Assembly (NCBI RefSeq): GCF_003334815.1
Contig: NZ_QOWO01000010.1
Reading direction: 5' to 3' (one strand)
DNA from: Escherichia coli
GTDB taxonomy: Bacteria > Pseudomonadota > Gammaproteobacteria > Enterobacterales > Enterobacteriaceae
Length of the DNA stretch: 64,000 nucleotides
In this document: one piece after another, positions 63,563 to 64,000 of the stretch
Layout of the letters: each line of letters starts with the position of its first letter
Numbering within the stretch: position 1 is the stretch's first letter
The notes under the pieces: generated by a model
Told to the model about the DNA's origin: nothing
What the model saw: the letters and a program-made list of their open reading frames with translations, nothing else
Databases searched by the model: none
Made by a program: the position numbers and the translations under genes

Positions 63563-63877
63563 ATGAAACCTGTAAAACCACCTCGTATTAATGGACGAGT
63601 GCCGGTCCTGTCGGCACAGGAAGCGGTGAATTATATTCCCGACGAAGCAACACTTTGTGTGTTAGGCGCTGGCGGCGGTATTCTGGAAGCCACCACGTTA
63701 ATTACTGCTCTTGCTGATAAATATAAACAGACTCAAACACCACGTAATTTATCGATTATTAGTCCAACAGGGCTTGGCGATCGCGCCGACCGTGGTATTA
63801 GTCCTCTGGCGCAAGAAGGTCTGGTGAAATGGGCATTATGTGCTGAGAGATCCCCTCATAATTTCCCCAAAACGTAA
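63563..63877 (+). pseudogene. ydiF: CoA-transferase ydiF interrupted by an insertion sequence after about codon 93
   Basis: N-terminus MKPVKPPRINGRVPVLSAQEAVNYIPDEATLCVLGAGGG... matches YdiF (about 531 aa in the reference as remembered) but the frame runs into an IS10 terminus at 63843 and stops at 63877. Confidence 0.8.
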
Positions 63878-64000
63878 CCATGTGTGAATAGATTTTGAGT
63901 AAGCAGGGTTGCAGCCACGAGTGAGTCTTCCCTTGTTATTGTGTAGCCAGAATGCCGCAAAACTTCCATGCCTAAGCGAACTGTTGAGAGTACGTTTCGA
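63843..64000 (-). mobile_element. IS10 (Tn10-type IS4-family) insertion sequence, one end only; continues past window
   Basis: terminal sequence ctgagagatcccctcataatttcccc matches the IS10 end; minus strand encodes the transposase C-terminus. Confidence 0.85.
63856..64000 (-). CDS. IS10 transposase, C-terminal 48 codons (partial)
   Basis: minus-strand frame reads ...RNVLSTVRLGMEVLRHSGYTITREDSLVAATLLTQNLFTHGYVLGKL stop; matches remembered IS10 transposase C-terminus. Confidence 0.85.
   Translation of the reverse strand, partial: RNVLSTVRLGMEVLRHSGYTITREDSLVAATLLTQNLFTHGYVLGKL

Follow-up and report, generated by a model that had tools for sequence, protein, structure and literature searches.

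The 64,000-nt window analyzed here, a single stretch of DNA, is collinear with the chromosome of Escherichia coli K-12 MG1655 from about nth to ydiF. In its last part (63300-64000), the end of aroD is followed by a 142-nt spacer and then by a reading frame that starts from an ATG at 63563 (Table 1). Alignment with MG1655 shows that, up to 63842, this frame is identical to ydiF (280/280 nt), with ..AQEGLVKWALC as the last residues encoded, followed by the first base of codon 94. From 63843 onward, the window reads CTGAGAGATCCCCTCAT... (over a longer span, CTGAGAGATCCCCTCATAATTTCCCC...) where MG1655 reads GTCACTGGGG (over a longer span, GTCACTGGGGACAATCG), and the terminal base of the insertion sequence IS10 coincides exactly with the first base that departs from MG1655. 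The original prediction, made from the letters of the window, had the ydiF frame running into an IS10 end after codon 93, and the alignment confirms these coordinates to the nucleotide. Its description of the reference gene as intact, about 531 codons long and free of the insertion was likewise accurate: ydiF of MG1655 spans 1,596 nt (531 codons) and carries on past nucleotide 280, so that the reference gene does not stop at the point corresponding to 63842. Full-length YdiF, a fused alpha/beta enzyme of the family I CoA-transferases, comprises 531 residues (PDB 2AHU), of which residues 1-93 alone are present in frame in the window; the 5' fragment yields a weak match to the CoA-transferase family. 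Given that 93 of the 531 residues remain, the YdiF enzyme is lost and the allele is a ydiF null.

Table 1. Features of the ydiF::IS10 junction and of the upstream backbone (window coordinates)
Feature	Position	Strand	Remarks
73-nt REP-like unit	23958-24030		sodB-ydhP spacer; missing in MG1655; flanked by CCGCATCCG repeats
ydiF 5' fragment (acyl-CoA:acetate/3-ketoacid CoA-transferase)	63563..63842	+	93 codons + 1 nt; equals MG1655 ydiF nt 1-280
Chimeric reading frame	63563..63877	+	104 codons: YdiF 1-93 + AERSPHNFPKT from IS10; stop 63875-63877; from the list of open reading frames
Predicted left copy of the 9-bp target-site duplication, CATTATGTG	63834..63842	.	ydiF nt 272-280; abuts the IS10 terminus
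IS10, first 158 nt from the inside end	63843..64000	-	IS10-left type at 6/6 diagnostic positions (nt 30, 49, 58, 59, 62, 81)
IS10 inside-end terminal inverted repeat, CTGAGAGATCCCCTCATAATTTC	63843..63865	+	identical to the inside end in R100, C9, E6474 and DH5alpha
dam methylation site GATC	63849..63852	.	hallmark of the IS10 inside end; read from the sequence
IS10 transposase 3' end	63856..64000	-	last 47 codons (RNVLSTVRLGMEVLRHSGYTITREDSLVAATLLTQNLFTHGYVLGKL*) + stop 63856-63858; gene runs on past the window

The 158 nt beyond the junction match elements annotated as 'IS4-like element ISVsa5 family' in complete E. coli genomes with 100% identity (E = 2e-76), ISVsa5 being a database synonym of IS10R (PMC10885879). 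The earlier assignment of this segment to IS10, which a failure of these 158 nt to align would have undone, thus stands, together with the claim that the C-terminus of the IS10 transposase is encoded on the minus strand, where its last 47 residues and the stop codon are found. A single occurrence of the 26-nt IS10 terminus is present in the window, where shuffled sequences predict 0. The terminal repeat is that of the inside end, the end that adjoins the transposase C-terminus: it agrees with the outside end at 17 of 23 positions, and the outside end (CTGATGAATCC) has no GATC. Control of IS10 by dam has been described (PMC5006887). A search for termini across the 64,000-nt window found no IS10 outside end (CTGATGAATCCCCTAATGA...), so that a single end is seen, as had been noted at the outset. 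IS10 encodes a 402-residue DDE transposase of the IS4 family, which reads towards the inside end. The full-length reference protein scores 402 bits against the NCBIfam profile NF033591 (IS4 family transposase); the 47-residue fragment, searched alone against family profiles, gave no family match. IS10-type matches are present in 1,023 of 5,426 complete E. coli genomes (19%), at 4,892 places; a frequency of 16% has been given elsewhere (PMC4574204).

For typing of the element, full IS10 copies from E. coli C9, E6474, a DH5alpha record and Tn10 of plasmid R100 were compared. In R100, the inside ends of Tn10 face gltS/jemA and tetD, and the segment in the window is identical to the copy on the gltS/jemA side at 158 of 158 positions and to the copy on the tetD side at 152 of 158. 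The two R100 copies differ at 15 positions, of which six lie within 81 nt of the inside end and the other nine fall outside the window. The gene order of Tn10, as Chalmers and co-workers are said to have described it in 2000, is IS10-left, jemA, jemB, jemC, tetR, tetA/B, tetC, tetD, IS10-right. Left and right were assigned from the gene order of Tn10 in R100 and from the order listed in PMC2258188, and it is because of this published order that the gltS-side copy of R100 is taken as IS10-left. Moreover, the transposase fragment is identical to the C-terminus of the WP_001352368.1-type (IS10-left) protein, with S/T/V where IS10-right has L/A/A. Judged by these bases and residues, the inside end seen here belongs to the IS10-left sequence type. 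The IS10-left of Tn10 (R100/NR1) thus shares with the window copy all 158 nt, the inside-end repeat, the GATC site and three C-terminal transposase residues, and differs in that it flanks the tet genes whereas the window copy stands alone within a gene of the chromosome. The active Tn10 module, IS10-right (GenBank J01829-type), belongs to the same family and has the same terminus and organization, but differs from the window copy by six substitutions in the first 81 nt and by three amino acids in the last 47 residues.

Several chromosomal copies offer a context for this end. Ten chromosomal IS10 copies with an inside end identical to that in the window comprise three that are the IS10-left of Tn10 beside gltS and seven that are solitary. 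All seven of these sampled solitary copies are 1,329 bp long and are flanked by perfect 9-bp duplications, and three of the seven are left/right mosaics; given the frequency of such mosaics, it is the inside-end portion of the window copy alone that can be typed. The mosaic solitary copies, each with a left-type inside end, are those of ECCRA-119, AR436 and SMN013SH2, and their mixtures of left and right diagnostic bases suggest that copies have recombined or undergone gene conversion with one another. In natural strains, left-type elements clearly do move, although IS10-left has been described as inactive; solitary IS10-left copies and fresh IS10-left hops have also been documented (PMC11148124, PMC11481808). 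The DH5alpha record (NZ_CP026085) presents a separate oddity, namely a nupG gene with two tandem IS10 copies, the first of them left-type (L004 2501-5158), in which the 9-bp separator TGCTGGGCG reads as the reverse complement of the left-flanking 9 bp, CGCCCAGCA; this is either an unusual arrangement or an assembly artefact.

Two other ydiF::IS10 alleles were found among the 5,426 genomes. In C9 (NZ_CP010129), a right-type IS10 follows ydiF nucleotide 429 with the duplication ATCGGGACA (L001 3093-4421), and in E6474 (NZ_CP116981) a right-type IS10 follows nucleotide 881 with the duplication TGCGCGGCG (L002 3546-4874). Both resemble the allele in the window with respect to the gene, the kind of element and its orientation, but represent independent events, at nucleotides 429 and 881 as opposed to 280, and are right-type as opposed to left-type. 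That three of three ydiF copies share one orientation is not significant (p = 0.25). The C9 locus has additional features: an IS1 separates rprA from an N-terminally truncated ydiB, and ydiL, ydiM and ydiN are missing (L001 479-1732), which indicates an IS1-associated deletion beside the ydiF::IS10 allele.

The junction itself is rare. When a 601-nt query across the junction was used, none of the 5,426 complete E. coli genomes contained it in one piece, and the exact 30-nt junction had 0 matches in the GTDB species representatives and 0 in JGI metagenome contigs. Furthermore, a literature search yielded no paper linking ydiF and IS10 in E. coli. The 104-residue chimeric product has one exact match, in the draft assembly GCA_965212685.1, on contig CBDBYT010000004.1 (181,123 nt), which equals the window over 10,438 nt bar one base. 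The insertion, present in this one draft assembly and in 0 of the 5,426 complete genomes, is specific to a strain or lineage, which agrees with its original description as strain-specific. The matching contig carries an N at IS10 positions 81 and 427, both of which are diagnostic for left versus right, and the window has G at position 81 (63923); at the five diagnostic sites that lie no more than 62 nt from the junction, the base is unambiguous and in every case left-type. The Ns at left/right diagnostic sites imply that the repeat was collapsed in a short-read assembly, and the genome, to judge from these bases, probably holds both IS10 types; the IS10 sequence beyond about 60-80 nt from the junction may accordingly be a collapsed consensus of several copies.

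With respect to the backbone, the 63.8 kb that can be compared with MG1655 differ by nine SNPs (positions 7294, 8192, 19483, 22322, 28286, 42567, 47408, 50576 and 51371), located in anmK, slyB, lhr, the mepH-grxD spacer, punC, the fumD-ydhY spacer, sufS and sufB (twice), and by one extra 73-nt REP-like unit (Table 1), a polymorphism for which Tandem Repeats Finder returned nothing. In wild isolates (from calf, chicken, dog, human and wastewater), the window has one collinear match that includes the 73-nt unit and is slightly better than the match to K-12. By these sequence differences, the backbone is that of a close relative of K-12 and not of K-12 itself.

We consider it highly probable that a single IS10 hopped naturally into ydiF between nucleotides 280 and 281, as a simple insertion. 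Under this scenario, IS10, a member of the IS4 family that forms the flanking modules of the tetracycline-resistance transposon Tn10, would have entered ydiF by cut-and-paste transposition in a natural K-12-like (phylogroup A) E. coli isolate, with its inside end abutting the 5' part of ydiF and its transposase gene, on the minus strand, reading towards that end. The element is predicted to be complete (1,329 bp) and to be followed, beyond its outside end, by the 9-bp duplication CATTATGTG and then by the remainder of ydiF. The predicted far junction would thus consist of the outside end ...GGGGATTCATCAG (over a longer span, ...CATTAGGGGATTCATCAG), then CATTATGTG, and then GTCACTGGGG/GTCACTGGGGACAATCG... 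from ydiF nucleotide 281. This course of events matches the published behavior of IS10, which transposes by cut-and-paste and duplicates 9 bp of the target (PMC4574204). A point against this scenario is that the predicted target CATTATGTG poorly resembles the classical, strict hotspot consensus NGCTNAGCN, with which it agrees at two of six positions; with the relaxed form NPuCNN-NGPyN it agrees at three of four (consensus from PMC4574204). The C9 target also scores two of six against NGCTNAGCN and yet is a proven duplication, and IS10 insertions outside the target consensus have been documented (PMC4574204). The window holds 158 nt of IS10, and the deposited contig of GCA_965212685.1 ends 548 nt into the element; an exact look-up in public data of the GTG-start product predicted for the downstream part of ydiF retrieved no record of the far junction.

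The alternatives to a simple insertion concern the surroundings of the element, its source and the reality of the junction. Insertion of a whole Tn10 was rejected, given that the host junctions of an intact Tn10 would be outside ends, its inside ends face the tet region, and ydiF adjoins an inside end. A chromosomal gene that abuts an inside end implies either a solitary IS10 or an IS10-promoted rearrangement. The latter possibility would place the junction at one end of a larger IS10- or Tn10-promoted event (an adjacent deletion or inversion via inside ends, or an 'inside-out' composite), in which case other DNA would adjoin the far end of IS10 in place of the remaining ydiF sequence and ydiO. 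Inside ends are the ends used in Tn10-promoted deletions and inversions, and the exposed end here is an inside end. Moreover, one end is visible, the deposited contig halts inside IS10, and the Ns at left/right sites suggest both IS10 types in the genome and hence, possibly, Tn10. Nevertheless, each of the seven sampled solitary copies that share this inside end is a simple insertion with a duplication, as are both other ydiF::IS10 alleles, and the 63.8 kb upstream show nothing rearranged relative to MG1655, so that we regard a rearrangement as quite unlikely. An assembly chimera, in which a ydiF contig would have been joined to a repeat, might be suspected from the draft source and from the contig that ends in a repeat with Ns in it. 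However, the switch away from ydiF coincides to the base with the IS10 terminus, for which a random join has a chance of about 1 in 1,329, and the five diagnostic sites nearest the junction are uniformly left-type; owing above all to this coincidence with the terminus, a chimera is very unlikely.

The remaining alternative concerns provenance, for which the original prediction had offered two options, a relic of Tn10-based strain construction or a spontaneous IS10 hop. The former would make the insertion a leftover of Tn10 mutagenesis or strain construction carried out on a K-12 derivative in the laboratory. Such leftovers are real: in DH10B, JM109, XL1-Blue and NEB5alpha, stray IS10-left or IS10-right copies, each solitary, remain from exposure to Tn10 and are still able to hop (PMC11148124, PMC11481808), and the 443 nt beside the junction are 100% identical to MG1655. 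In contrast to these K-12 cloning strains, the window has a non-K-12 backbone, with the nine SNPs and the REP-like unit speaking against a K-12 derivative; furthermore, wild isolates are collinear with the window and resemble it slightly more closely, and the K-12 genomes included in the 5,426 all lack the junction. For the reason given by the SNPs and the REP-like unit, we hold a laboratory origin to be highly improbable, and this part of the original prediction is not sustained. The second option, a spontaneous hop, fits the natural, non-K-12 backbone and the occurrence of the same junction in a draft isolate assembly. Such a natural hop is unremarkable given that IS10 is found in approximately 19% of complete genomes.

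Beyond the loss of YdiF, the insertion could affect the neighboring gene. In MG1655, ydiO begins 13 nt downstream of the stop codon of ydiF, and with this spacing polarity on ydiO is plausible to likely: transcription from the ydiF promoter into ydiO would be largely blocked. Both pIN and the outward-directed promoter pOUT are located in the outside end of IS10 (PMC5006887), and outward promoters at both IS10 ends have been described (PMC4574204, PMC11481808). In the orientation seen here, the outside end with pOUT would face ydiO, such that polarity may be partly relieved, and pOUT may, by analogy with the published biology of IS10, drive some ydiO transcription.

Lesions of ydiF are not confined to IS10. 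In 273 blocks of the public collection, a 328-residue downstream remainder of ydiF with an ATG start is annotated as a gene in its own right, and the ten places inspected belong to other genomes with other lesions, namely nonsense SNPs, 1-nt indels, a 17-nt insertion and an IS1 after nucleotide 507; some of the indels may be sequencing errors. To judge from these sequences, ydiF seems dispensable. The three independent IS10 hits, with pOUT directed towards ydiO, together with the IS1, nonsense and indel alleles, raise the question of whether ydiF is a recurrent target of inactivation, under selection for loss of YdiF or for re-wiring of ydiO, as opposed to undergoing neutral decay; we consider such selection unlikely.

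Thus, the insertion in ydiF is real, strain-specific and ordinary, an IS10 insertion of a long-known kind, to which the present analysis adds the IS10-left-type inside end, the natural non-K-12 backbone and the draft contig that breaks in a repeat. Short-read contigs break at IS10 copies, and the portion of the insertion sequence at such a contig end may be a multi-copy consensus. The allele marks the lineage of the isolate; for annotators, ydiF in this lineage is a pseudogene, and ydiO is possibly mis-expressed. Furthermore, the genome carries mobile IS10 and therefore probably has, or had, Tn10 with tet(B).
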